DNA of 48,179 nucleotides, the filler included, from Jimgerdemannia flammicorona (taxonomy: Eukaryota): NCBI GenBank assembly GCA_003990765.1. It is 2 parts of 2 records of this genome, joined end to end, with 100 filler letters (N's around TTAATTAATTAA, not from the genome) between each part and the next. Parts side by side here need not be neighbours in the genome. Positions count along the whole stretch, not along the records: positions 24,141 to 48,179 come from RBNJ01001027.1; 1 more part is not named here. The stretch is one strand, 5' to 3'. The translations under genes were made by a program, and so were the position numbers. The notes beneath the pieces were generated by a model. It did no database searches. It was not told the DNA's origin and worked only from the letters and a program-made list of their open reading frames with translations. This document shows, piece after piece, positions 7,755 to 48,160 of the stretch (position 1 is its first letter; every line of letters begins with the position of its first letter).

Positions 7755-7887
7755 TTAGTTAGTTATATAATTAGCTAGTTGATTAGTTAGTAAGTTAGTT
7801 AGTTAGTTTGCTAGTTAGTTATTTAGTTAGTTAGCTAGTTTATTAGTTAGTAAGTTAGTTAGTTAGTTAGCTAGTTAGTTAGCTAGC

Positions 7888-7922
<35 letters not shown>

Positions 7923-7970
7923 CTAGTTAGTTAGTTAGTTAGTCAGTTAGGTAGTTAATTAATTAATTAA

Positions 7971-8017
<47 letters not shown>

Positions 8018-8142
8018 TTTAGTTATTTATATAATTAGCTAATTTATTAGTTAATAAGTTAGTTTTTTTGTTAGTTAGTTAGTTAGATGGTTAGATAGTT
8101 AGATAGTTAGTTAGTTAGCTAGTTAGTTAGTTAGTTAGTTAA

Positions 8143-8194
<52 letters not shown>

Positions 8195-8355
8195 CTAGCT
8201 AGTTAGTTAGTTAGTTAGTTAGTTAATTAGTTAGTTAGTTAGTTAGTTAGTTTGTTAGTTAGTTAGTTAGTTAGTAACTTAATTAGTTAATTAGTTAGCT
8301 AGTTAGTTAGATAGATAGTTAGTTAGCTAGTTAGATATTTAGTTAGTCAGTTAGC

Positions 8356-8389
<34 letters not shown>

Positions 8390-8499
8390 ATTAGTTAATT
8401 AGTTAGTTAGTTAGGTAGTAAGTTAGTTTGTTAGTTATTTAGTTTATCTAATTAGCTAATTTATTAGTTAGTAAGTTAGTTAATTTATTATTTAGTTAA

Positions 8500-8543
<44 letters not shown>

Positions 8544-8544
8544 C

Positions 8545-8580
<36 letters not shown>

Positions 8581-8747
8581 CAGTTAGCTAGCTAGTTAGT
8601 TAGTTAGTTAGTAGTTAGTTAGTTAGATAGTTTGCTAGTTAGTTAGTTAGTTAGCTAATTAGTTAGCTAGTTAGTTAGCTAGTTAGTTAATTAGTTAGCT
8701 AGTTAGTTAGTTAGTTAGTCAGCTAGTTAGTTAGTTAGTTAGTTAGC

Positions 8748-8781
<34 letters not shown>

Positions 8782-8845
8782 TTTAGTTTATTATCCAATT
8801 AGCTAATTTTTAGTTAGTAAGTTAGTTAGTTAATTAGTTAGTTAA

Positions 8846-8889
<44 letters not shown>

Positions 8890-9013
8890 GTAGCTAGTTA
8901 GCTAGTTAGTTAGTTAGTTAGATAGTTAGCTAGCTATTTAGCTAGTTAGTTAGTTAGTTAGATAGTTAGCTAGCTAGTTAGTTAGTTAGTTAGTTAGTTA
9001 ATTAGTTAGTTAA

Positions 9014-9060
<47 letters not shown>

Positions 9061-9085
9061 TATAATTAGTTAGTTAGTTAGTTAG
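7755..9085. repeat. (TTAG)n degenerate tetranucleotide array, ~1.33 kb
   Basis: Continuous TTAG units with CTAG/TTAA/ATAG/TCAG variants, running precisely from one LTR end to the next. Confidence 0.97.
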
Positions 9086-9582
9086 TGTAATATAGCAGAT
9101 GTATAACCATATAAGTATATTAGGTTTCTTTATCTTGAAAACTTAATCTTCTTCAACTCTGCAGTATCCTTAAAATGTAGAAGTGGGTGAGTTTGAAGTA
9201 TATCTTTCTGCAGACTTACTAGTTCTCTTACTTTCACTTTATATAGAATTATTTCAATCTGAGATTTATTTACTCTATATATTGGAGATATTTATACAGA
9301 TTTATTAGTTATAAAGTAGCTGAGTTATGAATATGTTTTCTATGAGTCATTCTTCATAAGTATTAATTATTGACATCTATTATATCTTTGATAATTATCA
9401 ATACTTTAACATCTGTGAAATCTTTGACATTTGTGACTACTTTAACATTTGTTAAAGTTTCTAAATTTGTGAAATATGACTGCTATTTGTAAGACTATAC
9501 TATGTTTGGAAATCTGATTCTGGTACTAACATTACATATCTATTCTACTGATTTATATTACTAATTCAGATCAATCTTTACA
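9086..9582 (-). repeat. 3' LTR of gypsy B, with polypurine tract at 9583-9595 (minus TTTAAGAGGAAGT)
   Basis: TGTAA...TTACA termini, homology to LTR A, adjacent purine tract on the minus strand. Confidence 0.85.
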
Positions 9583-10478
9583 ACTTCCTCTTAAATAGAT
9601 AATTTATCTTTAAAACATTCTATTCACTTAAACTCTCAAGCATTTACTATTTGTATCTTCTTATATTATATAATCTGTATCATTACAATCTCTCAAAAGT
9701 ATCTCTTAATATATTTAATATCTTCTAAGACTAATGTTTGGACATGGGCTAGAGCTAATTTATTATCTTTCAATAACTTGTTAATTCATTTGATAATTGA
9801 GATTTATATCAAAGAGCTGGTACTCTCTGATCTAATCTTCTTTTCCATTTCTGTCTATGAGTTTAGTAGCTGTCCCAACTCAAAGTATTCTTGAAACTCA
9901 GTTTTGTTCTGGTAGGTCTTGAAATATGAGATTTAAAATAAGTATATCTCAACTATTATCAAAGGATTCTTCTATGATTGGTAGTTCTATAGTAAACCAT
10001 TGTCTTTCTATAACTCATAGTACAGTACTAGTAATCTTGAGGACTGCAGCAGTACTTCATTGATTAGTCATGATATTTCTTGATTCAGTTTTAGTAAATG
10101 ATAGTGTGGATGATTATGCCTGAGAGTTTTCATAGTCAAAAGGTTATTATATCTTATACTAAGTTTGGTTCTTCTCACTTAGGCTCCAGCTTTCATAACT
10201 ATGAAGCTTCTATAATGTTCTGATATACCATAACTTTGTCTCTTATCTTGATAATCTCCAGAGGCTTGAAATTCTTTTCTGAATTATTCTATTGTTATAT
10301 CTATGCCTTGGTTACATAATTCTCAGCCTTCTTTCTGATTGGTATAGTCTTCATATCTCTGTATCTATATGTTTTCATACAGTATCTCTATTGAATAATT
10401 AGGTTCTTTGAGAACTTTCTTCTCTAAATAGTATCTCTCAAGAGTTGACTAAGTATCACTTGGTTCTAGACTATTTCA

Positions 10479-15155: not shown

Positions 15156-17819
15156 CTCATAGTTCTCTACCAAGCTTGTAAAGTCTGGGACAGACTTTGA
15201 TATCTATAGTACCTCATTTATCTAAGAAATGGGTGCTTTACAATCAGATATCCTGAAGCACAGATAATACTATTAGCAGATATTGATCCCAATATTGTAG
15301 TTATTACAGGTCTTATTGATAACATTCTTGAGAGGTTTGTTGGTCCTTTCTGCTTATTTATTTCTCTGAGAGTAATAGGCTATAGTCTGAATGTTCTAGA
15401 TACTGTACTTCTTAAAGAGAACCTCAAAAAACTGGTTCATGAATTCTGTTCCTCTGTCTGTAGTTACTTATAATGGGGTCTTGAATCAGCAGATGATTTT
15501 TTGTAGAAAAAATCAGAAATTGACTGTGTATTATCTCCTTTGAGAGGTCCTGCCTCTATTTATTTTGTAAAAAGGTGTTGATGATAATAATATATTAATT
15601 GCCAGTCAAAGTCAAGAATAGAGGGCCAATTACATTTATTGCAATATATACAAAGAGTACTGGTTCTGTGTGCTAATCTGGGGTTTTGATTTCATTGGTC
15701 TTATTTCTGTTTTTAATATTTATTACAGTTCTTGATAAATTATCTAATATCTTTCTCTATTCCTGGTCACTACATTGTTCTTCTTACTTTATCATATATA
15801 TTTATTCCTCCTAGATGACCAAGTTTATATACTGATTTCATTACTTGCTCCTTCTTGTGTTTGGGTATGATAAGTAGCTTTCCTTTTTTTAGTATTTCTC
15901 CATCAGTCTCAAATTGCTTCTATGTTCTGTTGATAATTATTTGTATCAATTTTTTTTAGATATTGAGGCATCTTTTGCTATCTCAGGTAGATAATAATAC
16001 TGTAGAAGAGTTCTTTATTCATAGTTGATTTACTAGTTAGAAGTCCTTCAGAGTATCTTTAAGAGAGTATCTGCATTGGTATTAGTTCTTTCAGAGTAGT
16101 GTACAATGATTATATTATAGGCTTGCAACTTTATTATCCATCTGACATAGATTCCTTTGGATTGCTCAGTGATCAGTAGTCAAGTGAGAGTTGAGTAGTC
16201 TATCTGAAAAGTAAAGTATCTTCTGATAAGATAGTAGTGGAACTTTCAACAGTCCAGATAACTGCAAGATATTCCAACTTATAGGATTCATACTCTTTTT
16301 CAGCTTCTTAAGATCCTTAGCTGAGATATGTAATGATATATTCTACTTTGTCTTTCTTTAGAGCCCAGACTACTTTTAGTCCTTGTGTACTTACATCTGT
16401 TTGCAGGATAAATTCTTGAATTTAATTAGGTCTTCTGAGAATAGGTGCTTAGATCGGTCTGATCTTAAGTTTATCAAATGCTTTGTATTGTCTACCAGTC
16501 CATTGGAACTTTATATCATTCTTATTGAGTTTGTAGATTGAGTCTGTAATGTTGGAAAATCCTTTGATAAATATACTATAGTATGAGGTACATCCTATGA
16601 AGGCTTGGGCTTTAGTGACAGTAGTGGGTCTTAGATATACTATTACTGCCTAAATCTTGAGAAGGTCTATATATATTCTATCTTAGTTGATAATATAGCT
16701 AAGATAGGAGATCTCAATTTCTGTGAAATTGTACTTCTTGGACTTAATGTATAGGACATGCTTTCTTAGCTTCTCTATTATCTACTAGATATACTGCAGA
16801 TGTTCTTCAGCTATTTTACTGTAGATGATAATATTATTTATATAAACTATCATCCATCTTCCTATATTTTAGCAGAAGATTTTGTTTATTATTTACTGAA
16901 AGCTTGCTGATGTATTACACATTCTAAATAGTATTTGCAAGTAGACATAGGTTCTATCTAGAGTGATGAAGACTGATTTTTTACTTGCTGCTTCTGTAAG
17001 GTCAATTTGATAGAATTCTGTATATAAGTCCAAAGTGCTATAGTACTGTACTTTATCTTCTAAGATTATACAAATGTTGCTTATGAGAGATAGTGGCTGG
17101 CAATTCTTCTTGGTAACTAGGTTGAGGTTTCTGTAATTAGTGTAGAGTCTTGGAGTGAATTCTCCTAGCTTTTTTTTTTTTTTTTCAGAACTAATATAAC
17201 TGGTGAACCCCAAGGACTGCTGGCTTCTTTGATGATACTGGCTTCTTCTATCTGCTTGATTTCTTCTCTGAGCCATTCATAGTAGGCTGATAGTATTGGG
17301 CTTACTTTTTGGTAGATTGGTTCAGTATTCTCTATATCTATATTATAATAGTAGTATAGAGTCTTCTCTTGATATTATTGAAGTCTGTGGCTAGGACATT
17401 CTCAATTTCATAAAGTATCTTCTTGAGTTCCTTCTTGAGTGAGAATTTATCTCTAATAGTATAGCTATACTTATTTGTAGTTTTCTCCTTCTTGTATTCT
17501 AGTTTGGTAATCTTATTACTAGTAAATAATCCTCTTTCTATAGATCCAAATCCTTTCTTTTCTCTTTCTGTTTTCTTCAACTTCTTGACCTCCATGATCT
17601 TTGGCTAAAGAACTAGAAAGATCAACATCTGGGTCAATTGATCCTTCTTCTTAATTGAAAATAGAATTGTAGAGTTATAGTTTCTAGCAATGAGTAGTAT
17701 CTCTTTAATATAATCTAAATCAATGACTCCTTCTTCAATTGTAATCTCACTCTTAGCCAGGCTACTTCTTATCTTGAGGATTCTAACATAGTCTTTTGGA
17801 ATGGTTATCTCCAGATCAT

Positions 17820-17911
17820 AAGGCTATACTATATTTGGGAATCAGATTCAGGTACTGTGATCAAATGTCTATTCCCCTGATTCATGTTCCTAATTCGGAT
17901 CAACCGTCACA
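17820..17911 (-). repeat. Partial LTR (outer 92 bp) of the A/B family, abutting the F-box pseudogene
   Basis: Matches 7663-7754 mostly by transitions; ends ACCGTCACA. Confidence 0.88.
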
Positions 17912-19772: not shown

Positions 19773-20594
19773 GCCAAATAAAGCGGTCTGTTGCTCGGAT
19801 TAATCGCGACGCTTTTACGAGTATATTCAACACAAAGCGATTTATACGGGCTTTGGGAGTAACGGTGAATACGAGATTCCGTGGCGGTGTCTACCATATT
19901 TTAAAGGTTCGTGGACGCTGGTATTTTCTCAGGCGTCGACGCTATTTAGTTACGATCTTCGGCGTTAATCTCGGTTAGGAGTTAGTGTCTGTCTTAGGTG
20001 TCAATTTTGGGCGCTCGCGCTCCATTACACACCGCACGCTTTTATTTTAAGTGTGTATCAATAATCCGATACACCTACGAATTGCAATTCTTGGCTAACA
20101 CTACAAAGCTCGTTGTATGGACGTAAAGCCGTTTGCGAGAGATGTAGGTGCCGATGGCTTTCACAAGCGGAAATGGCCGACGGCGATTGCATTTGATGGC
20201 TGCCACGCGGTTGCTAATTTTATTATTACATTTATCACGAACACAGTCTACATCCCTAGTCAAGCTCACCGCCATTGTGAATGGAACCTCCAACCGTTGC
20301 TCTCCCAAATCGCAGCGTAATCAGTATTACCGGCATTCTGGTTAAAATATTTTCGTGGCAAAATGTGTCGAGTTACGGGTATTATCTATGCTATTTGAAG
20401 AAGCGAATGCAACACAGGGTTATATTTCTCCCAGATTATTTACTGAACAGCATTTCCACTATCTACTTTAATTTCCTTGTGTGACAATTCTTTAAACAAA
20501 CACGTGCCCTACAGATAAGTAACGTTTCAGTGGTCCACGTGTAAAATGGTAAATTGACAACAGCCGTCGCACCCCAACGATTGTTTCCCTTCTT

Positions 20595-21587
20595 ATGGCT
20601 TCCACTCGGAGCGAAAACAATTCCCCTCTTTATCTCAACTATGAATACCCTCGCTTGCTACCTGAACTGGTACGCGAGGTGTTTATCCATGTCGAGGCGG
20701 AAGTCAACCCCTGGAGCCCCTACCCTTCCGGGGCATTCCTTGACCTCTTTGCCTGCTCGTTGGTTTGCACAACCTGGAACGACGAGGCTCGCAAACTGCT
20801 CACTGAGAAAACGTTCTCTGTGCTATATAGCTATGGGTTGATAGGGGCCATCAACATCAATCGGTTGGCGGAGCTACTCACGGAAGCACACAAATATGGA
20901 CTCCACTATCGTGCCTTGATAAGGAAGGTGTTTATTCCCTCCCCCACCGGCGCACCCGAATTCTCTCAAGCTATCCAAGGCTTGGCGACCATCTTGGCTC
21001 TCCATCCACCGAATCTTTCCCATCTCGCCATCGGAATGCATACAAGCAAGCCGCCCTCCAACGTGGACGTCAATGCTATTTTCGACAGCATCAAACCCCT
21101 GACGCCCCCGACAATTACCACCCTCGACATCAGCGGCTCTACTGGTTATCATTCGGTCGCTAGATTCATCTCCTCCCAATCCGCCACCCTAACAGCCCTC
21201 CGCCTCTCCTCCATGTGTCTGGATGGGCCAATGTCGTCCGCACTACGCCTTTGCACCCAACTTCGTGTGCTGTTCCTCGACAATGTTGAGGATGGCGAAC
21301 TGCTTTCCCTGTTCCGCTTCTGGCCAGAGTTAAGGATGTTCGACTTCCTTCAGTACAGTGCAGGTTGCAGCACCACCGAAATCGCCGGCGAGATGAAACA
21401 ATGGTGCCCTTATATAACGAATTTCACATATGCTTGCAGTACCGCTAATATGATGGGGTTAGGACACTTCAACATCATCTGGGTTCGCGAAGGAAGTCCG
21501 AACGATGTGTTGACAGAGATTGATACAGATTATTTTATGGATAGGTACATAGTGGAACAACAATTCAAATTCATTCTTAGTATGTAA
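20595..21587 (+). CDS. F-box-like protein with C-terminal leucine-rich (RNI-like) region, 330 aa, intronless as predicted
   Basis: Intact ORF in CpG-rich DNA; LLPELVREVF...LFACSLVCTTW F-box-like motif; LxxLxL segments (ITTLDIS, LTALRLS, LRVLFLD); paralog nearby. Confidence 0.8.
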   Translation: MASTRSENNSPLYLNYEYPRLLPELVREVFIHVEAEVNPWSPYPSGAFLDLFACSLVCTTWNDEARKLLTEKTFSVLYSYGLIGAININRLAELLTEAHKYGLHYRALIRKVFIPSPTGAPEFSQAIQGLATILALHPPNLSHLAIGMHTSKPPSNVDVNAIFDSIKPLTPPTITTLDISGSTGYHSVARFISSQSATLTALRLSSMCLDGPMSSALRLCTQLRVLFLDNVEDGELLSLFRFWPELRMFDFLQYSAGCSTTEIAGEMKQWCPYITNFTYACSTANMMGLGHFNIIWVREGSPNDVLTEIDTDYFMDRYIVEQQFKFILSM

Positions 21588-24040: not shown

Positions 24041-24140
24041 NNNNNNNNNNNNNNNNNNNNNNNNNNNNNNNNNNNNNNNNNNNNTTAATTAATTAANNNN
24101 NNNNNNNNNNNNNNNNNNNNNNNNNNNNNNNNNNNNNNNN
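24041..24140. other. Assembly gap with artificial TTAATTAATTAA spacer
   Basis: N-run with a six-frame-stop linker in the middle. Confidence 0.95.
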
Positions 24141-25139
24141 AAGCACTGCCCCCCCATTAACTTAGGCTAGCTATTGTCCAGCAGCTTGACTATGCCAGAT
24201 GCAGCAGGGCTGATAAGCCTGCACCTCATTCTGCACACCATGCTCTCCCTACCACCAGGGGAAACCCAACCATATGCCAACGACCGAAAGCGCATGCCTG
24301 AGAACCCAACGTATGTACAAGACCACGCTCGAGCCGAATAGAATAGCCTCTGCCACCCCAAAGAGAATGACAGGCAAAAAAAAACCCTCATCAAAGCACA
24401 ATACAGTGGGTAGGGCCTGGTTCTCCCAGTCAAGGTGAGTAAAGGACTTATACGTAAGGCGGAAGGAAACCCCCAATACCCCACTACTCAAGCCTGCGGG
24501 CCTCGATCACGTTGCCATGTCAGCTCCCAGTTCCAGTTGAGTGCAGCCAAGACGCCTGAAATAGGTAGCCTTGGGCCTCCTAACCCCCCCTGACAACTGG
24601 GGCCCAACCCTGCTGACCACCAAAAGAAGCCGATAGTGACACCTACCACCTAACCATGCTACACCAATCAAAAGGCCCCACTGAAGCAGCACCTGCCCCA
24701 GCCCCGATGACTGCCCCCAGCCTGGCACCCTACTGGTTCACCGTAATCGCCCTTCCACTTATCTGTGATGGCCATCTCCCCTCCCATCCTGACAATACCT
24801 GAAAAGCAGTCACCTACGCCAGAACCATGCTCGCCGGGAAGCTCGCCAAAGCCAGAGGGCCCCACCACAGGCACCAAGGACCTGCAGGTAACCTACACTG
24901 AGCACTTGATGCCCAAGGTCGGCCGACTCCCTACGTAGCCCGAGACATACTGAGACAACTCCTTGTTGGCGACAGCAAAAGGAAGAAGGCACCGCACCAA
25001 AACGGGTACACCCCAGATGCAGCTGAAGACACCAGAATTCATGAAAAAGTGGAGGAAGCACTGATCCGACACTAATAAAGGGGCAACTCATCACTATTAC
25101 CCTCCTCCCACCATGCCCCTGCAGACACAGCAAACCAAC

Positions 25140-27600: not shown

Positions 27601-27694
27601 GCATGAGGAGATTGTGGTAGGGAGAGAATAAGAAAAGATATAATTCTTCCAGATAAAGATCTCTTTTTATATCTGTAATATTTATAATAGATAT

Positions 27695-29038
27695 TGTAAC
27701 AAACTACGAAATATAGCAATCTCAAAACCTAACCAGGTGATGTGAACATTAGCATAGTATAGTAACTAGCAACCATTATTGTGGAAAAATATATAAATAA
27801 CCAGATAGCCAAAGAAGGAAATAATGTGAACAATGGCTGTCCTCTGGACAGTGGCTATCTACCAGACAGTAACCATCTATCTAAATACACCATAGATAAC
27901 AAATCTATAGTTAGCCAGATAGTAATCAGATAGCAACCACAATGTATAAATTACCCCAGAGACAAGAGTGAATAAACCTCAGTCTGAAATTCAGAATACA
28001 TTTCAACTTCAGTTTGCTTTTCAATATAAAGAAGAGTCTGAAAATTGAATCCAAAAAGTAAAAGACAAGTCTACCTACTACACTTTGAGAGATATGCCTG
28101 CCAAAAGCCACTTGATCCAGGAAGAATTGCAACACTTAGGAGAAATGCCCACTCTATAGCCACTATTAAAAGATTGTGAGCATTGATTCCCTTTTTCCAC
28201 TCTGGGCTACTTTCTGATATAAAGCTTGAAGATTTTGCTGTCTAAGTTTGAGAAAGAACTTCACTGCTGTATTCCCAGTTGAAGCTACTGATTCAGGAAG
28301 AATCCATGACAGCCAAGTTACTCATACCATCTAAGTTATTTCCCAGAAGCCCACTGATTCAGGAGAATCTATATCATCTGCTATTTCGAGTTATCTGTAT
28401 TCCCAGAAGAACCTGATTTGCGCCATCTGAGTTTCCATGACATCTGAGTTATCTGAGTTATCTAAGTTACTCACCACTGAGTTATTCATTTATTCTCAGT
28501 GAGCCAATATAGAAGAACCCACTACTAGTACAATTCCCAGTAAGAAGGATCTATACTATCCTCTATTTCCAGTGAGCCAAATTGAGTTATCTGCCAAATT
28601 ATCAGAATGTCCTGCATAAGGAACTCATCATGCTATACAAGATCATCATATAGAAATTATATAAAGAGAACCACTAAATTGCCAGACTGTTATGCACAAG
28701 GAGATTGTCACACTACATAAAGATCATCATACTACACAAGATCGCCATACCCAGAAATTGCATACTTTTGGAGATTGCCTCACTATACAAATTTGTGGCA
28801 TTCCTAGTTAACTTAAGAAGGAAACCCATTTATACACATAAACTGCTGCTACACTCAGAGAACTGTCCCAATTAGGAAATTGATACACAAATCACTCATA
28901 GATATCTAGCTTTTGACTATTATACTGCTAAATATCAAGAATATTTTGTTGCTTTTAACAAAGTAACTAAGGGCTCAAGCCAAACTACATCAACCCCCCA
29001 ACCTTGTAATTTGCCTCTATTGAGCCAGGCATGTTACA
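27695..29038 (+). repeat. 5' LTR of element C (1344 bp)
   Basis: TGTAACA...TGTTACA; direct repeat of 36727-38015. Confidence 0.95.
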
Positions 29039-29040
29039 TT

Positions 29041-29056
29041 TGGGAGCTCAACTGGA
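29041..29056 (+). promoter_or_regulatory. PBS, tRNA-Pro-like (TGGGAGCTCAACTGG vs TGGGGGCTCGTCCGG)
   Basis: 2 nt after the LTR; most differences from the tRNA-Pro PBS are G>A or C>T. Confidence 0.55.
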
Positions 29057-32000
29057 AAGATTTCAAAAATCGATATAACTTTTCAGCTTACAAGAACCCA
29101 TAGTCAAACTAGATACATTTGATATAACACCAATTTCTGCCACTACAGGAGAACCAGTTATTACCAGCATTTGGATAGGAAGAGAAGTAATCATATCAAG
29201 ACTTGCTGACTACCCAGCATCAGAAGGATTCTAGCTAGAAGCAGAAGACAGTATAGGTCAAAATCCCCAACCAGATCAACCAGACAATATAGACAGCCCT
29301 GCTGGAGATTTTGAAGAACTTGTACAAGAACTAGAAGATCTTATTACACAAGCCTGAGATCTTATAGCCAGACACCCCATATTCATCCCACCAATCTCCT
29401 CAATAGAACCTTTACCACAACCCCTTGCAGAATCTGAAGTAGCTCCTACAAAAATACCTAGGCCCATTCCATTTCGTCCAAGGCCCAGAACACTATCCTC
29501 AGGATATCCAAGCACCTCTATTTCTAGTGACAGCTCAGAAAGTAAATCAGAATCAGAATCCAGACCAGAACCAGAATCAGAAGAAAGTGATGATGAAATG
29601 GCCACCTCATTGCCAACCTTTGCAGAATACTCAGAGGAAGACCCTAGAGAATTCCTTGATAGAATTGAAGGAATTGCAGCCCTAAGGAATCTCTCAGATG
29701 AAAGAAAAATTGCCATCTACAAGGCTCAGCTCAGAGAACCAGCCAGAGGAATTTTCCATTAAACAGCAGACAACTGAGATTTAGAACTAGCAAGACAGAT
29801 ACAAGCAGCAATGTCTGATGAGCAAGAATATGTAGCCATGGTCCACTGACTTATTGTAAAGTATACAGAAAATGAAACCTGCCATAAGGCTCAAGAATCC
29901 ATTATAGGGATGAAGATGAATCTTAGAGAATCACTCAGAGCCTTCTTTATAAGAATCCAGAAGAGAATGTATGCTGCTGGGTTCAATGCCACCAACCAGG
30001 ACATTATAGGTCTAATGATCTTCATGAATAGAATTCCTCCAAACATTGCCCAACATGTCCACACCCTAGGCATCAGAAGGTCTGAAGAGTAAGTGGATGC
30101 AGTCTAAGGATTCTTTGATGTCAGACAAGGGACTACCTGGAGTGATTATGAGAAGAAAGAAGATAAAGAAGACATCCTGGTCAAAGCCCTACAAGGACTC
30201 CTTCAAGGACAAGAAAGATCCAAAGAAAGAAGGCCAGCCAAGAAAGGAAAGAAGGACAGAAGTGAAATCCAAGACCTTAGCTCCAAGTTGGACCAATTGG
30301 TTGGACAGATTGAAAAACTTACCACATGCAAAAATTGGGGCTACCAAGACAGCAGGGGATACCCACCACAGAGGAGCCAAGGTTATCCACCAAGAGATAA
30401 TAGGAATTACCAGCAAGAAGAAAGAAGGTATCCTATCTGAGACAGAGCCCAAGTCCAATGTTTTCACTATAGATAATTCAGACACTATGCTACTGAATGT
30501 GACAATAAAAGAAGTGACTGAAGGGACTCAGAACCACCAAACTGAAGGAATGACACTCAGTACAAGAAGGCTGAAGCCCATCCTGTTGAAGATTTCAAGG
30601 AAGCAAGCAACAGTGAAAACTACAGTGACCTAGACTTGTACCCTACCAAGGTTACCACCCAAAAGACAGTTTACCTAGCAGAAAAGAGGAAGAGACCTGT
30701 AGGAAGGCCATCCAGGAACATCAGCAGAAGAATCATCCAAGAAGAAGATGAAGAACATGAAGAGGAACAAGTAGAAATATCTCCCCGAACCCTCTCACCT
30801 TTTGTTCCTGAGACAAATGAGTTGCTACTAGAAGATGAAGAAATGGAATAAGAAGAATGGGAACCTGCTGCTCCAAAGCCTAAGAAGAAGTATACTCCAA
30901 AGACCATGCCTAGAGATATTTACAATAAAGCTTGGCAGAAGATTCAAGAAGCCAAGATAGAAGTTCCCCTCCTACAGTTCCTACAACTGACACTAGCTAG
31001 AGTTCAAAACAAATTACTGAGAACCACCAGGTCTAGCACTGGCCAAGTCCCAATCCCACAGCAAGAACCAGTTCCCATCCCTGTTCAAGCAGCTGAAAGA
31101 CATGTCAGTACCTACCTACATGGAGATATTGGAAGACAAAAGGCGAAGATCCTCATAGACACAGGAGCAGCTGTCTGTATTATTGCCAAATAGTTCCTGG
31201 ATACCCTCCAATGGCCCATTGATGGACCATCTAACCTCAGTATCATAGTAGCAGATGGAGCCTGAACTCAACCCCTTAGAGAAGTATAAAATATCACTAT
31301 CTCTCTTGGACACATTCAGTTCTCTATCTCCAAAGCTGTTGTCACTGAAGCTGACACCTATGATATGATTCTTGGCACCAACTGGATGAAGGAAATGAAT
31401 GCAGTTGTTGATATTGGCCAACAAGTACTCAAGTTTGATTACTAAGGCAAGAAGTATAGAGTTAAGGTGACTAGCTATGAGCAATCAAAGAAGAAGAAGA
31501 AGGTCACTATTCAGGAAGAATATGCCAGTAGTGAAGAGTCTACTAGAGAAGAGGAGGAAGAATCTGAAGATGGAAATAATCCCAGACTCAATCCCTGAAT
31601 CAATCTGGTGGATGACAGACCAGAAGACAATGTGTGGGCTAAGAACACCATTCCCATCACCATCAGAGCCATTGCAGGAGAAGCCAAGGGATGTCCTACC
31701 TGCCTCAAGAGACACAAGTATCCTGAGCACTCCTCCAAGATCATGGGAACAAGGAAATCACCTGGCACAGCCTGCCCAGAGTACAAAAGAAAGAAAAAGA
31801 AATGCAGACATGTTCCAGAAATACCTGCAACTGAAGCTGCAGAAGTACAAGCAATTTGGGGTCAAGAATCATCTGAGGAAGGAGAAACTTCTGACCAAGA
31901 AGTTCCTGAACAAGAAGTACCTGAAGAAGAAGAGGTTCCCGAACTCATTCCCTGGGATAACCCTTGCTGGACACCACCTGAAGACAATGACCCTTGGAAT

Positions 32001-32760
32001 ACAGAAGAAGGATCCAGTACAATCACTATTATTTCCAAGAAAGAAACTCACCAAGAAAAGGCTTTTTGGCTAGGAAGATGTCCACACCAAATGGTCTTCC
32101 ACTCTCCCCGAGACTACTGCCACCAGTGTCATCTGTTGGATCAACAAGAAAGACAGAGACCCCAGAGACCAGAACCCCCAACTACACTTGTACAGTCAAC
32201 CACCTTTTAAGAAGTTACCACAAAATTACAAAGTCAATTTAGAGGACAAGACTTCTTCACCCAAACAGAAATATACCCCTTGTCTACCCTTCCCCCAACT
32301 TATGATCAAGATAGGTACCAATTCCCAAGACAACAAGAGATCAACAGCTGGAAACATCATTTCTAAGCAATGGGATATTGCAACCATGGAAGACACCCTG
32401 ACTGCCAAGACTGCAGATATCAGAGGATTCACCTTAGTTATGATATTGTAGTCTATACTTTAAAGAGAGGAGACAACAGGGGCCAGATCCGAAAAAGCCA
32501 AACCAAGAAGCCAGAAAGAAAAATCCTCAAGTTCTATGATTTGGAAGAAGATATCCTAGCTCTCATTAGATATGCAACCCGCCAAGGATAGGCAAAAGAT
32601 GCTACCAACTTCATGGAAGTCCTAGACCCTATAGAAAGAAGAGGAATCAATTATCTCTGAGACCCCTCTACTGGAGCCAGATGGCTACACCTCAACCTTA
32701 GAGCTTGGAGGCTCTCTGCTAGTGGAGCTTCAGCCTGAACTCAGCAAGGATATTGCCCAG

Positions 32761-33165
32761 TATGTTCTGCTGCACCCCAAGGCCAAACCCCTGGCCAAAG
32801 CCCACCCAGAGGATATAGGATATGATCTTTACAGCTTAGAGGATAAATCTATCAAGCCTGGAAAAACCTTTATGATCAGAACTAGATTAGCTATACAGCC
32901 ACCCCAAGGAGCTTACATCCAATTGACCTCAAGGTCTGGACTTGCCAGACAAGGAATAACTATAGAAGGAGGAATCATTGACCCAGGATATATAGGCAAA
33001 ATCAAGGTTATTCTACACAACAGCAGTATAGAATGGTACTAAATTATTAGAGAACAGAAGATTGCCCAAGCAGTCTTCATGAAGGTCAGAACTCTACAAT
33101 TACAGGAAGTATCTAAACTAACTGAAGGAATGAGGCAAGCTAAAGAATTTGGAAGTTCAGATAAG
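32761..33165 (+). pseudogene. dUTPase domain within the gypsy pol
   Basis: Motifs GYDL, RSGLA, GIIDPGYIG, IAQ, FGSS in order; stop at 33040-33042. Confidence 0.92.
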
Positions 33166-34023
33166 AAGGAAGTACATCTCTTCCAAGTCAACCATCTCAA
33201 GAGGAATGCCCCCCAACAACTGTACCAGCAACCAGTCAGACTGCACAAGAACCTCATCCTGGAGCCTGGAGAACAAACAACCTTCGAAATCTTTGCACCA
33301 CCTGACCCCAGAAACCTTTTCTTTGAACCCAAGGAAGATATTCCCCACCTGGACATAGAAGGATATACATTCTCTGACAAGATGAATCTAGTACATTCCT
33401 GAGCAATCAACCAAAGTTGGGAAACCATCATCTTGCTAAGAGGAACCATCATAGGACATCTGGTACCTTTTCTCAACTGAACTCATAAAGAAGTTTATGA
33501 ACTAAACCTATTGGGAAATGGCAAAAGGTCTCAGAAGAAAGAAAAGGCCCCTTTGCAACCCAGGAGACAGTGAAGCCTTCCACCAACATTGGAGAAGAAT
33601 TGACACCTCAACAACAGCAACAATTAGTAGAACTTCTCAATAAATATCAAGATATCTTCACTATTGATTATGGCAACCTGCCATACAATCCATCATATTA
33701 CCACAGCATAAATACAGGAAATACAATACCCATCTGGCAGAAACCCTATAGAATACCCCATCACTTGAAAATATTCAAAAAGGAGTACATTTAAGAACTC
33801 TTAGACAATAGGGTCATCTGACCCTCTACCAGCCCCTGGGCCAGCCCTATACTTATTGTACCAAAGAAAGGAGGATGGAGACTCTGCATGGATTACAGGA
33901 AACTCAATTCAGTCACCGAAAAGGATATATATCCTCTGCCCAGAATTGATGACCTCTTAGATTAGTTACAAGATACCAGATACTTCAGCAGTATGGACCT
34001 CTTTGCAAGATTTCATGAAATCT

Positions 34024-34055
34024 TGTCAAGTCCTTCGGGACCACTGACACTTGAA

Positions 34056-34086
<31 letters not shown>

Positions 34087-34142
34087 GGCCCCTGCACAAG
34101 GATGATACTATCTTCCTGAGTGGATAGCCCTATATGGGCAAG
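34024..34142 (+). ncRNA. U6: U6 snRNA copy (probable retro-pseudogene) inserted in the RT domain
   Basis: GTCCTTCGGGAC 5' stem-loop, then AAATTGGAACGATACAGAGAAGATTAGCATGGCCCCTGCACAAGGATGATAC (ACAGAGA box, AGC triad, ISL). Flanked by AGATTTCATGAAATCT at 34008-34023 and 34143-34158. Confidence 0.95.
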
Positions 34143-36726
34143 AGATTTCATGAAATCTCCATGGACCTAAAAGATATTCAAAAGACAGCCTTCCTTGCTT
34201 TAGGAAAACTATTTGAATATCTCTGAATACCCTTTGGACTTTGCAATGCACCCCCCACCTTTCAGAGAATGATGAATTCAGTCTATGCTCCCTTGATCCA
34301 CTACTGCCTGATTATATACATGGATGATTGTAATATCTATTCAGTAAATTTTGAAGAACACCTGCACCACCTGAAGGAATTCTTCAAGCTCACCCACAAA
34401 AACCACTTGAGACTAAATGCAAAGAAATGCTACTTTGGGAAACAGAAACTTGAATTCCTTGGATTTATAGTCTCAAAAGAAGGAACCCATGCAGATCCAA
34501 AGAAAACCAAGAAGATCAACAATTGGCCAGTACCCAAGACTCCAAAAGAAACATTATCATTCCTGATGCTAGTATCCTACTACAGAAGATTTATCAAAAA
34601 CTTTGCCCAAATTGCTGCCCCAATCTGAATCCTTCTCAAGAAAGGAGTGCTATTCAAATGGACAGAATCACAAGAAAAAGCCTTCAAAGAACTTAAGAAC
34701 TGCATGACTATAGCACTAATCCTTGTATATCCCAATCTATAGAAGCCATTCATCTTGTATACAGATGCTTCTAAAGATGGTCTCAGAGTATTTATAGCTC
34801 AAGAAGGACTCAATCAACAGCACTATGTGATAGCTTATACAAGCAGAGCTATCAATCAGCAGCAGATGAACTATGGTAGCACCAAACTGGAATGTCTTGC
34901 AGTCATATGGGCAGTCACCCTGTTCAAGCATTACCTCATCAGAAAAAGGTTCACCCTGATCACAGACCATGCAGCCCTCAAATAGTTATTTAACCATAAG
35001 AAACCCACTGGAATCCTAGCCTGCTGGATCCTTATTCTTCAGGATTACAAAATTACTATCATCCACAAAGCAGGGAAAGCTCACAACAATGTTGATATAC
35101 TTTTCTGCCAGCCCCAATGAACTAGAAGAAGGGTGTCCCAAGGAATTACACTCTAAAGGAAGCTCCTTAGACTATTAAGGCACAAGAAGATCTCATCCAA
35201 AAAGAATATCAGAAAGCCCACTAAGAACAGATAAGTACAGAAGACAAGATTTAAGAACAATATCAACATTGGCCCCACCTCAGAACACAAGTCCAAGACA
35301 TTATTCAGAAATGTAATATCTGCCAGAAGTACTAAGGAAGGAAGAACTATCAAGCACTACTACAACCAATTGCACTATTAGACAATATCTTTCAGAGATG
35401 GGGAATAGATGTAATTGGACCTCTACCAGTTATACCAAGAAGAAATAAATATATTCTTGTATTTGTGGAACATCTGACCAAGTGGCCTGAGGCTTTCCCA
35501 ATGGAAATCACAGATGCCTTAACCATTGTAGGCCTCCTCCATGGACTCATACTCAGATATGAATCCCCAGAAGAACTTATCTCTGACTAAGGCACAGAAT
35601 TCATCAATAATATAATTACAAGTTATGCTTGAATTCACAAGATCCACCTCAAACGAATCACATCATATCACCCACAGACCAATGGCATGACAGAAAGAAT
35701 GAACCAGACCATCAAGAAAGGACTTGCCCAAGTTGATCCTATCAATTGGGACCTCTGCTTACCTGAGATCCTATGGGAAATCTGAAATACCCCTGCTGCT
35801 TCAACCAAACAAAAACCTTTCAAAATGATGTTTGCTAAGAAGACCAGAACTACTGACCATGAGAACCTTGGAAAGCTTCTTGAAAAAGAAGATCAGCTGC
35901 AAAATGAAGCCCAAATCCAGATTATCAAAGCCCAGGAAAGACAAAAGAAGTATTATGACCAGAAACAAAAGGATCAGAAGATCAAGATTGGTAATCAAGT
36001 TCTGGTTTAGAGAAGCATGATAGAAACAAACTTTACCACTAAACTGGAACTGAAATGGGAAGGACCTTATCTTGTATACAATATTAGAGAAACTAGCATC
36101 TATTTAAGAAGCATGGATGGACAAACCCTGAGAACAGCAGTATACATCAATCACCTCAAACTATATCTCCTCTCTATACCATAAGCCAAAGGATTGATCA
36201 GCATCTCCAGACATTGGTCCTCAGCTCCTTCCAGGCCCTACCAGTTCCCTTACCCCAGTTTCACCAACTTGAATGAACTCCAATACAATTGATCCAGAGG
36301 CATCAAGAGAATCTTGCCATTGCCCAAAGATTATTACAGATCTACCATCTATAGATCTCCTACAACATTGGACAATTACTTAAAGAATAGCCATACATTG
36401 GAGGACTAGCTGAGATAACCCACCAAGAAGCAAGAACTGCCAAATGAATCTACACTCTATACAAATGAAATGTTGGAGCCCTAGTGCAATCTCACTTCTA
36501 CCTCAATGATATTCATCAGATGAATGAGACCACCTTTCAGAGTATTCTCCAGTAAGTAGATATCCTGTTTTCCAAAGGATAAGAAGAAGACCCAGAGCTA
36601 GAATGGAGTGACCCTGACATAGACAATGAAGATGACAGAACAGGTATAGATGCAGAAGCAGCTTATACTTATTGGAATAATGACTGAAGAACAGTCTGGG
36701 ACAGACTATCCTTTAGTGGGGGCTGA

Positions 36727-38015
36727 TGTAACAAACCATGAAATGTAGCAATCTCAAAACCTAACCAGGTGATATGAATATTAGCTTAGCATAGTAACTA
36801 GCAATCATTACTGCAGAAAAATGTATAAATTACCAGATAGCCAAAGAAGGAAATAATGTGAACAGTGGCTGTTCCCTGGACAGTAGCTGTCTGCCAGACA
36901 GTGACTGTCCACCCAAATATACCATAGATAGAAAATCTATAGTTAGCCAGATAGCAACCAGATAACAACCACAATGTATAAATTACCTCAGAGACAAGAG
37001 TGAATAAACCTCAGTCCAAAATTCAGAATACATTTCAACTCTAGTTTGCTTTCCGATACAAAGAAGAGTCCGAAAATTGAATTCAAAAAGCAAAAGACAA
37101 GTCTGCCTACTACACTTCGAGAGATACACCTGCTAAAAGCCACTTGATTCAGAAAGGATTGCAATACTTAGGAGAAATGCCTGCTCTATAGCTACTACTA
37201 GGAGATTGTAAGCATTGGTTTCCTTTTTCCACTCCAGTCTACTTTTCAATACAAAGCTTGAAGATTTTACCACCTAAGTTCAAGGAAGAACTTTGCTGCC
37301 TTATTCCCAGTTGAAGCTGCCAATTCAGGAAGAATCTACAACAGCCAAGTTACCCATGCCATCTAAGTTATTTCCCAGAAGTCTGCCAATTCAGGAGAAT
37401 CTATATCATCTGCCATTTTCAAGTTATCTGTATTCTCAGAAGAACCCAATTCATGCTATCTGAGTTTCCACAATATCTGAGTTATCCAAGTTATCTAAGT
37501 TACTTACTGCCAAGTTATTCATTTATTCTCAGTGAGCTGATACAGAAGAACCTACTGTCAGTATAATTCCCAGTAAGAAGGATTTGTGCCATCCTCTATT
37601 CTCAGTAAGCCAAATCAAAATCATCATACAGAAATCACATAAGAAGAACTGCTAAATTGCCAGATCATCATATACAAAAAGATCATCATACTATATAGAG
37701 ATCATCATACTATATAAGATTACCACATCCAGAAATTGTATACTTTTAGAGATTGCCTCACTACATAAAATTGTGGTATTCCCAGTTGATCTAAGAAGGA
37801 AACCTGTTCATATATATAAACTGCCACTATATTCAGAGAACTGTCCCAATTAGGAAATTGACACACAAATTACTCACAGTTATCCAGCTTTTGACTATTA
37901 TACCACTAAATACCAAGAACATTTTATTACTTTTAACAAAGTAACTGAGGGCTCAAGCCAAACTACATCAACCCCCAATCTTATAATTTGCCTCTATTGA
38001 GCCAGATATATTGCA
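36727..38015 (+). repeat. 3' LTR of element C
   Basis: Direct repeat of the 5' LTR with a short internal deletion; preceded by TTTAGTGGGGGCTGA. Confidence 0.95.
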
Positions 38016-40647: not shown

Positions 40648-42434
40648 TGTAACAGACCAAAACGTACCACCTGAATTATAACTTAGCCAGATGACGCGAA
40701 TAATTAGCATACTTACTCAGCATGATGTGACTTCCAGTATATCATGGTTACTCATGCCTGCCACACTTATAATTAGCCAAGACACCAGATCAGGATTGTT
40801 TATCTGTGTCCTGAGGACACACTCATGTCCTGCGGACACACTCATGTTCTGCAGACACACTCATGTCCTGTGGACACACTCATGTCCTGTGGACACACTC
40901 ATGTCCTGTGGATACACCTGTACCCAGAGGACACACCTGAATATTACCGAAGATAGCAAATCTATAGTTAGCCACATAGTAACCAGATAGCAACCAACTT
41001 GTATAAATTACCCCAGAGATGAGAGTGAATAAAACCTCAGTCCGAATTGAAGTGCAAACCAAAGAAGCCTCTAAAGATTGAGCAATTGGTCCCCTTATTC
41101 CCACTCCAGTCCACTTTCTGATACAAAGCTGATTTTTCCACCTAAGTTCAAGGAGAACTTCGCCACCTTTGGAACTATTGGTTCACTTGCCAGATAAGCC
41201 TGAAGAATTGCCGCCTAAGTTCAAGAAGAACTTTGCCACCTTTTGAAGAACTTGCTGCTTAAAGGAATAAGCCGCGCTATTGGTACACTTGCCAGATAAG
41301 TCTGAAGAACCCTATCCTCCACCTTCCCAAGAAAGCCACCTTGCTCAAGTCAGTTTCTAATGCAACTTCACAGTGATCCATTTGCGCAAACGAAGCTAGT
41401 CTTTGATGTAACTTTGCCAAGAGACCCTTTCCCAAAGAATGCTGCCAGTTGTTTGTATTCCCGGTAGAAGCCTGCCGATTCAGGAAGAATCCGTGCCATC
41501 CCGTTTTCCAGTTAAAGCCCACCGATTCAGGAAGAATCTGTGTCACCTGCCATTTCTAAGCTATCCGCCATATTCCCAGTTGAAGCCGCTGATTTAGAAG
41601 AATCTGCACCATCTGAGTTAATTCCCAGTTGAAGCTGCCAATTCAGAAAGAATCTGCACCATCCCATTTCCCAGTTAGAGCTGCCAATTCAGGAAGAATC
41701 CATGTTACCCACTGTTTCTAAGCTATCCGCCATATTCCCAGTTGAAGCCACCAATTTAGAAGAATCTGCACCATCTGAGTTAATTCCCAGTTGAAGCTGC
41801 TGATTTAGAAGAATCTGCATCATCCACTATTTTCAAGTTATCCACATTCCCAGAGAACCTGTGCCCCCGAGTTATTGTTCCCAGAGGAGCCTGATTCACA
41901 CCATCCGAGTTATTCATTATTCCCAGTGAGCCTAGGAAGAATCCATGCCATACAATTCCCAGTGAGCCAAATTGAGTTATCCACCAGATTATCAGAATGT
42001 CCTGCATAAGGAACCCACTGCACTACACAAGAGATTGTCATGCTACACAGAGATCATCACACAGAAACCGCATAAGGAGAACTGCTAAATTGCCAGACCG
42101 TCATATACAAGGAGATCGTCGCACTATACAGAAATCACCCATTACTCAAGAAGGAAACTGCTCATGCTATACACAAATTCTGCCATTCCCAGTTGACCCA
42201 GGAAGGAAACCCATTCACACAAATTGCCGCTACACCCAGAGAACCATTCCAATTAGGAAATCGATATACAAATTACTCGCAGATATCTAGCTTTGACTAT
42301 TATACCGCTAAACACCAAGGACCTCAGGAATTATAGAACATTTTGTTGCTTTTTGACAAAGTAACTGGGGGCTCAAGCCTAACTATATCAACCCCCAACC
42401 TTGTAATTTGCCTCTATTGAGCCGGCACGTTACA
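40648..42434 (+). mobile_element. Solo LTR (1787 bp), related to element C LTRs; TSD GTAT
   Basis: TGTAACA...CGTTACA; GTAT at 40644-40647 and 42435-42438; shares blocks such as AAATCTATAGTTAGCC and TTGCCTCTATTGAGCC; retains more CpG. Confidence 0.93.
40808..40938 (+). repeat. 19-bp tandem repeat GGACACACTCATGTCCTGT, ~5 copies plus degenerate ends
   Basis: Read directly; the consensus unit holds the GGACA/TGTCC inverted pair. Confidence 0.92.
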
Positions 42435-46929: not shown

Positions 46930-48160
46930 TTACCAAGACTTCAGACACATATATGTCCAGATTGTCTCAGCATTCAGTGTATACCTCTTTGGGGCAATGA
47001 GGTCCACCTTACCTGAGAACAACCGCTTGATGAGAGTGCTGGAGGTAGGAATTGCCAGGTAGTTCCAAGCCATATCATATAGGCTGGGGAAGTCTGTTTG
47101 ATGCAGCTGCATACTCTGGTGGGTAGAGCAATGGGTAGAGTAGTGGTTAGATTGATGGATTAAATTGGCCCAATGCCCATCTAACAACCCACCTTCCACC
47201 AGTTGAGCACCTCTGCACCCTCCAGCAGGATCACACAGTTACTGGTAAGATAAATGGTAAGTTCATCTATTGATGGTAGCTCTTTCACTGATGGCTCCCT
47301 CTTCCTCTTTCTGCTGAAGTAAATGTGGAATAGGAGGGATTCCTCAGTATATTCATCCAGACTTCAGCTGGAACCTTGCAGTGGTATATAGTTTTTCTGG
47401 TATACTTCGATTATGGCCTACTTGGTTCTCTCAATGAAGTGCTGCTCTCAGTCCTGATCTTTATGGTATTGTAGCTTTAAGTGTGGGTCCAGCACTATTC
47501 GAAGAAAAGGAAGAGTGAGTTTTTGTGGGGGTTTCTCTATTTTGGAAGAGGTAATGACCATATACTGACATTGACATACCTATACTAATTGAGTATATGG
47601 CAGTATCTATTTAGGAGTAGTATTTTCTGAGCTTGCTTAGAGTAACCTCTATGGCATCTCTCTGATCTAGGCTCAACCATAAATCACTGCAACCCTCTAG
47701 CCTATCCTTGAGCTTGTCCTCTAGCCAGTCAATCAGAAGGTTGTATACTGATATTGTCGAACTTATTTTGGAGTCATTTGTTTAACTATATCCTTCATAC
47801 AATTGTCAAAACACTAGCAGTTATATGTGGTGAGATATTGCATTATACAGAGGCAGACAAAACAAGTGTGGAGCCAGAGCAATCACCACTTACTTCCAAA
47901 CTCTGACAACATTCCTAAGTACATCTCACTCACTTTCACCTAGAGCCTTGGCCTATATTTCCTTATCAGCAGCTACTGTTGAATCTATTGGCTTTTTTTG
48001 TTTTTTGTTTTTTTTTTAAATAAATCTTCAATTATCTGAAATAAGTTGCTTCAGCTGAGTGAAGAAAAAAAGAATATATATCATAGCAAACTCCAGCATG
48101 TGCTGGATCATTGCAAATGTTGAGTTCTAACGTATACAGATGTCCAATATAAGCTCTTTT
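46930..48160 (-). pseudogene. hAT transposase, C-terminal part with dimerisation domain, spliced and decayed
   Basis: LDICIR*NSTFAMI (RWNS motif), YNLLIDWLE, KLRKYY, VLDPHLKL, VLNWWK-intron-LHQTDFPSLYDMAWNYLAIPTSSTLIKRLFS...MCLKSW. Confidence 0.93.

Follow-up and report, generated by a model that had tools for sequence, protein, structure and literature searches.

A tail-less U6 snRNA copy between self-complementary 16-nt repeats in a decaying Ty3/gypsy element of Jimgerdemannia flammicorona

The DNA considered here is a stretch of 48,179 nucleotides from the genome of Jimgerdemannia flammicorona (assembly GCA_003990765.1), referred to below as the window, in which parts of two records are joined end to end with filler between them, positions 24,141 to 48,179 coming from RBNJ01001027.1. 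At 34024-34142 it carries a copy of the U6 small nuclear RNA (snRNA), inserted in the reverse transcriptase (RT) gene of a Ty3/gypsy retrotransposon with long terminal repeats (LTRs) and bracketed by two identical copies of a 16-nt word. In an Rfam scan of all 48,179 bases (cmscan), U6 snRNA (RF00026) was the sole match at the gathering threshold, with 77.5 bits against a threshold of 44, an E value of 4.8e-18 and an alignment, not truncated, to positions 1-105 of the 105 of the model. A permissive scan of the window returned, beyond U6, just three sub-threshold rows resembling microRNAs (miRNAs), all elsewhere in the window and attributable to chance. The features of the insert and of the RT gene around it are the following.

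33720-34023, plus strand: RT frame upstream of the insert, with three stops, ending ...DLFARFHEI (translation)
34005-34010, plus strand: target copy of GCAAGA, reaching into the left repeat (read from the sequence)
34008-34023, no strand: left copy of the 16-nt target duplication, self-complementary (direct and inverted repeat search)
34024-34142, plus strand: insert, copying U6 snRNA and lacking oligo(T), poly(A) and a flanking promoter (between the repeat copies; Rfam)
34024-34049, plus strand: U6 5' stem-loop in extended form, with 5 bp and 4 bp around a UUCG loop (pair list of the fold)
34025-34137, plus strand: RF00026 match to U6 (cmscan)
34127-34139, plus strand: GCCC-TATAT-GGGC hairpin of four pairs at the 3' end of the insert (fold)
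34138-34143, plus strand: GCAAGA spanning the junction from the insert 3' end to the right repeat (read from the sequence)
34143-34158, no strand: right copy of the 16-nt target duplication (direct and inverted repeat search)
34143-34625, plus strand: RT frame downstream of the insert, starting RFHEISMDLKDIQKTAF, with Pfam RVT_1 at 34227-34625 (5.2e-18) (translation, Pfam)

The insert occupies 119 nt between the two repeat copies. Measured against the Rfam model, its 5' end lies within 1 nt and its 3' end within 5 nt of the model ends, 5 nt separating the end of the model match from the right repeat copy, and because RF00026 aligns end to end so near both limits, no gene-flanking DNA appears to have been carried along with U6. 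In the cmscan alignment the core of the copy (ACAGAGA box, AGC and the region of the internal stem-loop) equals the consensus save for two transitions, one of which is of the CpA-to-TpA type. The minimum-energy fold of the insert holds both the extended 5' stem-loop, to whose outer helix the 5' stem of RF00026 is aligned, and the small hairpin at the 3' end, the fold overall being unexceptional (z about -1.6 against shuffles). Within 33951-34300 there is no run of four or more T, hence no T4 terminator for the copy; the 3' junction has no A-run, the sole A6 being the internal one of U6 at 34054; and no TATA-like word can be read about 30 nt upstream, the DNA there being RT coding sequence. Having no A-tail, no T4 terminator and no TATA-like word at -30, the copy is taken to be a pseudogene. 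A functional U6 gene was rejected since terminator and promoter are both missing. A DNA transposon or miniature inverted-repeat transposable element (MITE) was rejected on reading the insert ends, which have no terminal inverted repeats (TIRs). A chimeric retrogene of U6 and a long interspersed nuclear element (LINE) was also rejected, as no 5'-truncated LINE 3' part lies between the U6 copy and the downstream repeat.

The word that flanks the insert, AGATTTCATGAAATCT, is a 100% identical direct repeat (16/16, repeat finder), and its two copies were also reported as a 100% complementary inverted pair, which makes the 16-mer self-complementary. Chance does not account for a U6 match that is complete and has a 16/16 repeat at its two ends. 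The duplicated word is the maximal perfect palindrome of the reconstructed empty site, the next bases, A and C, being unpaired. For a random 16-mer the probability of a perfect palindrome is 4^-8; shuffled windows hold a mean of 1.4 perfect palindromes of at least 16 nt, as the DNA is AT-rich. The palindrome is older than the insertion, because it is built into the coding sequence for FHEI. The nicks deduced from the repeat cut both strands after the same word, ...GAAATCT, as would fit a sequence-specific nuclease at a dyad-symmetric site or a structure-specific cut at the base of a hairpin; the DNA hairpin that the 16-bp palindrome can form is weak (-2.1 kcal/mol). As the junctions stand today, the palindrome on the left is perfect over 20 nt (34006-34025), since 2 nt of the insert pair with the flank there, and reaches 30 nt if imperfect pairing (87%) is counted, the first 7 nt of the insert being 5/7 complementary to the left flank; on the right it measures 18 nt (34142-34159).

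The word GCAAGA is common to the 3' end of the insert and the target, with an offset of 2 nt between the two, and it opens the way to a rival parse. If GCAAG is counted within the duplication, the repeat becomes 19 bp long with a 2-nt slip (AG) in its right copy; the insert would then end at 34137, precisely at the end of the Rfam model, half of the 3' hairpin would be junction, and just one border of the duplication would meet the edge of the palindrome. Rough counting of the coincidences that each parse needs cannot separate the 16-bp and 19-bp versions decisively, and the 3' hairpin is either native to this U6 or, under the 19-bp version, partly made by the junction.

Translated, the flanks share one frame, with ...YFSSMDLFARFHEI closing the left one and RFHEISMDLKDIQKTAF... 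opening the right one. The insert and one repeat copy together make 135 nt (119+16), so that the frame is kept across them, and the joined flanks restore a conserved RT motif in one frame. An earlier, sequence-only reading of this DNA had placed a near full-length U6 copy in a gypsy RT, with a frame restored by removal of the insert and one 16-mer, a GCAAGA shared with the target, a 5' and a terminal hairpin, and neither oligo(T) nor poly(A), and all of this holds. Its 16-bp target duplication stands as an exact and self-complementary repeat, while the rival 19-bp parse would make it less clean as a palindromic target-site duplication (TSD).

The empty site is preserved in related elements. 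The closest RT relatives, at 83% identity to the open reading frame (ORF) of the window, form a cluster of 37 members, all from metagenome-type sources, and read ...SSMDLFAGFHEIPMDPKDIQKTAF without interruption in 9/9 cases read by eye; the standard 8-residue spacing of the motif was found in 111/111 relatives that match the pattern, the other 51 of the 162 proteins not matching that pattern and being uninformative. At the protein level the insert is absent from all relatives of this RT that cover the site. This comparison was made on proteins, the ancestral nucleotide sequence being deduced from this copy together with those proteins; DNA of gypsy relatives was looked for in the viral and genome contig collections and none was found. 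At one position of the motif 109 of 110 relatives have Gly and this copy has Arg, a change encoded by the A that begins both repeat copies. Because both copies carry this A, the duplication is probably later than the inactivating mutation. Several stops of the RT region are Q-to-stop or R-to-stop changes when compared with the relatives. As the host gene was already dead, the insertion had no functional consequence. Named RT relatives, at 45-50% identity, come mainly from Rhizophagus and Rhizopus, with some from a spider and one from a plant, and the Atlas leads for this RT are likewise mixed, arthropod and fungal.

The host of the insert is a structurally complete retrotransposon, whose remaining features are listed here.

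27690-27694 and 38005-38009: 5-bp duplication GATAT of the host gypsy element (sequence)
27695-38004, plus strand: complete 10.3-kb dUTPase-bearing Ty3/gypsy LTR retrotransposon (LTR pair, Pfam)
27695-29027 and 36727-38004, plus strand: LTRs with TG..CA ends (repeat comparison)
32635-33039, plus strand: dUTPase, upstream of the RT (Pfam, 3e-17)
34743-34982, plus strand: RNase H (Pfam)
35336-35587, plus strand: integrase core (rve), a weak match (Pfam)

Its LTR pair, TG..CA ends, 5-bp duplication and order of RT, RNase H and integrase are those of Ty3/gypsy elements. Of 1277 aligned sites, 185 distinguish one LTR from the other (p 0.145), 178 through transitions and 7 through transversions; among the transitions, 125 are C-to-T at CpA, spread evenly over CAA, CAC, CAG and CAT, and CpG is almost absent. 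A CpA-to-TpA spectrum is the signature of repeat-induced point mutation (RIP), plants being expected to show a CG/CHG pattern, and the spectrum of the LTRs bears the signature of fungal RIP or of a process akin to it. Judged by this spectrum, by the named RT relatives and by the fungal leads for a neighbouring orphan ORF (20553-21584), the organism is probably a fungus, with a genome rich in repeats. Because the spectrum is RIP-like, LTR divergence is no clock here, and dating the insert against the LTRs was rejected as uninformative. A comparable setting, with many old Ty3 elements, enriched dUTPase domains and, in one species, L1 elements, has been described in a preprint on the giant genomes of Entomophthorales fungi (10.1101/2023.09.13.557621); this shows that such a setting exists, not that the present genome is one.

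The window holds no second copy or fragment of U6, according to both the repeat search and the permissive Rfam scan. Exact words taken from the insert were searched in three public contig collections: a 20-mer from the 3' part (34116-34135) had 0 matches in metagenome contigs, and a 20-mer from the 5' part (34030-34049) had 0 matches in genome contigs and 0 in viral contigs, in scans that need exact matches and from which RIP-type changes could hide a master gene. An 18-mer at the 3' end (34125-34142) gave 2 metagenome matches, which were dismissed as chance; they are mutually similar, contain no U6, and one stands beside a tRNA gene. Nor does the window contain a LINE tail that would match the insert at its 3' end. 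Because the family of the host gypsy element is well represented in metagenome data and the U6 words are not, a high-copy U6-tailed family is unlikely. The sequencing runs listed for the window were six, from 3 studies, all labelled soil metagenome, with shares of 0.05-0.14 and no RNA run among them.

Translations of 207 ORFs of at least 55 aa, covering the whole window, were scanned with Pfam, and the outcome was gypsy-type domains only (dUTPase, RVT_1, RNase H, rve) and one hAT remnant; there was no endonuclease and no LINE-type RT among them, although shorter, broken LINE remnants could have escaped. The sequence-only reading had proposed mobilisation in trans by resident L1-like elements, for which these ORFs offer no candidate, and had considered a short interspersed nuclear element (SINE)-like family derived from U6, or a preference for hairpin-forming targets, ideas left unsupported by a single copy in 48 kb and 0 relevant exact-word matches. 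Capture by template switching, also named there, is weighed below.

The locus very probably holds a dead, RNA-derived U6 copy with a target duplication. The anatomy is that of a retropseudogene, since the limits of the insert match the ends of the RNA model, promoter and terminator are missing and an exact duplication flanks the copy, and only the 'tailless' subclass fits, because there is no A-rich 3' tail. From the U6 identity, the limits of the insert, its duplication, the intact site in relatives and the lack of a tail and of RNA polymerase III (Pol III) signals we infer an RNA intermediate, target-primed reverse transcription, the kind of enzyme and the timing. The preferred account, to which we give an even chance, is of a single, dead, tailless U6 retropseudogene made by LINE-type target-primed reverse transcription in a decaying gypsy copy. 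A whole U6 RNA, from its first nucleotide to a few nt short of its 3' end, would have been reverse-transcribed directly at a chromosomal target, which would have been a gypsy copy already integrated and already in decay. The strands would have been nicked 16 bp apart, at both edges of the pre-existing palindrome that encodes the RT motif (G/R)FHEI, and the nicked bottom strand would have primed through a few nucleotides common to target and U6 3' end (GCAAGA, perhaps AGATTT as well) instead of poly(A); by its length, the U6 RNA could run on into the AGATTT at the start of the repeat. Repair would have left the 16-bp duplication, and the enzyme would have been a non-LTR (LINE-type) reverse transcriptase/endonuclease acting in trans.

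Published insertions of this kind offer support for the LINE-type account. Retropseudogenes have TSDs of variable length, about 7-30 bp, and here 16/16 matching nucleotides abut the insert. In the sections consulted, insertions made by a LINE in a fungus are described as flanked by direct repeats of 10-20 bp (Gogvadze 2007, PMC2104539) and the mammalian TSD range is given as 8-30 nt (Noll 2015, PMC5322556); the 16-bp duplication falls within both. snRNA copies that lack a tail but have TSDs form a described class, in which reverse transcription begins on the small RNA itself, aided by 2-18 nt of complementarity between its 3' end and the target (PMC5322556; Doucet 2015, PMC4476161).

Several considerations weigh against that account. 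The proposed enzyme is unseen, the scanned ORFs having yielded no LINE-type domain. The nick context, ...AAATCT, is unlike the L1 consensus TT/AAAA as it is given in the parts consulted (PMC4476161, PMC5322556). A perfectly palindromic duplication is no known hallmark of target-primed reverse transcription; palindromic target motifs have been described for integrases and transposases, in a study that, to the extent consulted, omitted non-LTR elements (PMC3276498). The 19-bp parse makes the palindromic duplication less clean, the palindrome is one case, and the A that heads both repeat copies could derive from the U6 end, leaving a 15-bp duplication. The putative 3' end point and priming homology are judged from the insert and the Rfam model in a single instance. 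The timing, too, is loosely held: at the measured per-site rate and with equal age, intact repeat copies have a P of 0.42 and an almost intact U6 core a P of 0.45, so that dating is without power, neither observation being surprising even if insert and gypsy copy are equally old.

Other routes to the same structure have to be weighed against these points. Unlikely, though the most serious of them, is the capture of a U6 complementary DNA (cDNA) at a structure-induced staggered break, in which the palindrome, as a hairpin or cruciform, would be cut symmetrically at its base, fill-in of the 16-nt overhangs would follow, and end joining with microhomology would bring in a free U6 cDNA, which any RT of the cell could have supplied, that of the abundant gypsy elements included. 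Retrovirus particles, in the sections consulted, package and reverse-transcribe U6 (Telesnitsky and Wolin 2016, PMC4997597). Such an event would give a duplication equal in extent to the maximal perfect palindrome at the empty site, for which random chance is the 4^-8 given above, and would need no LINE, in line with the ORFs of the window; short identities at both junctions (GCAAGA on the 3' side; on the 5' side the 5/7 complementarity and the palindromes of 20 nt and, at 87%, 30 nt) speak for it as well. Set against this, the DNA hairpin is weak, and a U6 cDNA of full length and with precise ends calls for a primer at the RNA 3' end, which target priming gives more simply. To our knowledge, moreover, cDNA capture at breaks in yeast leaves no long target duplication. 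A marginally less likely course of events is a patch inserted within the gypsy virus-like particle, with an insert as old as the gypsy copy itself: RT in minus-strand synthesis would pass a 16-nt RNA hairpin, switch to a co-packaged U6 and run to its 5' end, then switch back to gypsy RNA on the far side of the hairpin base, where the 16-mer would be copied again. The borders of the hairpin lie side by side, which would explain why repeat and palindrome are the same; U6 has the sense orientation relative to gypsy RNA that this requires and lies in the RT gene, and the dating tests allow equal age. Host-RNA patches with microhomology, some of them in the RT gene of HIV-1, are reported, as is the packaging of about one U6 per virion of murine leukaemia virus (MLV) or Rous sarcoma virus (RSV) (PMC4997597). 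Arg in both repeat copies, where 109/110 relatives have Gly, is unlikely in the RNA of a working parent, an argument that fails if the A in question came from the U6 end, and none of the relatives has the insert. The exact duplication at the flanks also counts against a patch, being the textbook signature of chromosomal integration.

A tail-independent retro-insertion pathway that selects dyad-symmetric DNA, cutting both strands at one nuclease motif or at the base of a hairpin or cruciform and so producing TSDs that are perfect palindromes and inserting small structured RNAs primed by homology, is doubtful and is raised here as a conjecture. A U6-derived SINE-like family, with a U6 head, a 3' hairpin tail recognised by a LINE and a preference for hairpin-forming targets, is very unlikely. 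The small hairpin at 34127-34139 does stand where U6 normally has oligo(U), and SINEs with snRNA-derived heads exist according to the pages consulted (Kojima 2015, PMC4494074); against such a family are the one copy in 48 kb and the 0 relevant exact-word matches in the three contig collections, the abundance of the host gypsy in the same data (its 37-member cluster) where U6 words are absent, the lack of any LINE tail in the window that matches the insert, and a core that differs from the Rfam consensus at 2 positions, as fits a copy of a working gene and not a drifting SINE. Least probable of all, and barely credible, is an artefact of assembly or library in which a chimeric read or contig joined U6 into the repeat, for it would not give rise to an exact 16-bp target duplication with both flank frames preserved, and the locus sits 6 kb into an element that is structurally complete.

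The preferred LINE-type retropseudogene can also be set beside known systems, each as described in the parts of the sources consulted. Like the insert, mammalian tailless snRNA retropseudogenes ('Group III', Doucet et al. 2015, PMC4476161; PMC5322556) have no A-tail, no LINE piece and a TSD of variable length; they start at the first nucleotide of the RNA, as this copy appears to, and show a short identity with the target at the 3' junction, for which GCAAGA is the candidate here. They are attributed to therian L1, at sites resembling TT/AAAA, and as a rule are plainly 3'-truncated, in single-stranded loops (PMC4476161; PMC5322556), whereas the present copy is near full length, with its own nick context (...AAATCT/), a palindromic duplication, a host that is probably a fungus and no LINE in the ORFs of the window. 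The mammalian U6-L1 and fungal WEIRD-MGL 'MINE' chimeras, made by template switching, likewise have a full-length small RNA at the 5' side and repeats of 10-20 bp (PMC2104539); they are defined by a 3' LINE fragment, of 230 nt or more in M. grisea (PMC2104539), which is absent here, the U6 body being followed by no more than about 20 nt of unassigned sequence, a word not repeated in the data searched. Retroviral host-RNA patches resemble the insert as a sense small RNA in pol with microhomology at the junctions; they are known from exogenous retroviruses (PMC4997597), and the insert differs in its exact 16-bp duplication and in repeats that share a mutation probably acquired after integration. 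Palindromic targets of integrases and transposases (Linheiro and Bergman 2008/2012, PMC3276498) also have the duplication centred on a dyad symmetry, but there the duplications have a short, fixed length, with 7-14 bp for the motifs, and belong to elements that end in LTRs or TIRs (PMC3276498), the present one being 16 bp long and bracketing an insert that has neither. SINEU is, like the insert, a short retroposon derived from snRNA (Kojima 2015, PMC4494074); its heads come from other snRNAs, it is multi-copy and its tails derive from LINEs (PMC4494074), while for this insert neither family nor tail was found.

The rest of the window holds further remnants. Gypsy-like remnants of other families, with dUTPase and in part RT, lie at 4148-5053 and 17608-17823, both on the minus strand. 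In the first of these the RT motif is unbroken (ILDLYSGFYQIRL...), and its weak RVT_1 match at 4148-4846 (minus strand) is regarded as gypsy-like because it adjoins the dUTPase. The hAT remnant is a C-terminal dimerisation domain of a transposase at 46933-47238, minus strand (Pfam, 5e-9). Pieces of sequence at 40934-42434 match parts of the gypsy LTR (36910-38000) at 70-95% identity and are probably a third, rearranged LTR-related copy, with a 162-bp tandem duplication among them at 41457-41825. A (TTAG)n microsatellite of 1.3 kb (7755-9086, ~333 units, 83% match) sits inside a very AT-rich stretch, and RIP-type dinucleotide indices are extreme around it (TpA/ApT 2.26 for 8001-10000). An ORF of 344 aa at 20553-21584 (plus strand) has no Pfam family and no relative detectable with HMMER; an Atlas feature search led to fungal F-box-like clusters with a score of 0.96, as a lead only. 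Two runs of 44 N, at 24041-24084 and 24097-24140 and 12 bases apart, are the filler that joins the parts of the window.

As a class, stray copies of RNA are ordinary, and it is the missing tail and the palindromic target that are unusual. The precedent among fungi, in the part of the source consulted, concerns chimeras headed by the WEIRD RNA and not by U6 (PMC2104539). If recurrent, the palindromic duplication would point to nicking guided by structure or symmetry; as a single case it is a curiosity. Were it true, a pathway that selects dyads would be a rule of target choice not described for insertion of the non-LTR type. The locus also preserves one version of the U6 of this organism, with an extended 5' stem, possibly a 3' hairpin and possibly a divergent 3' end. 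Processed copies of U6 are a mark of reverse transcriptase at work on cellular RNAs, and a clean, tail-less and near full-length copy in a fungal repeat that appears to be RIP-affected indicates that such a pathway, or its equivalent in the gypsy particle, operated there.

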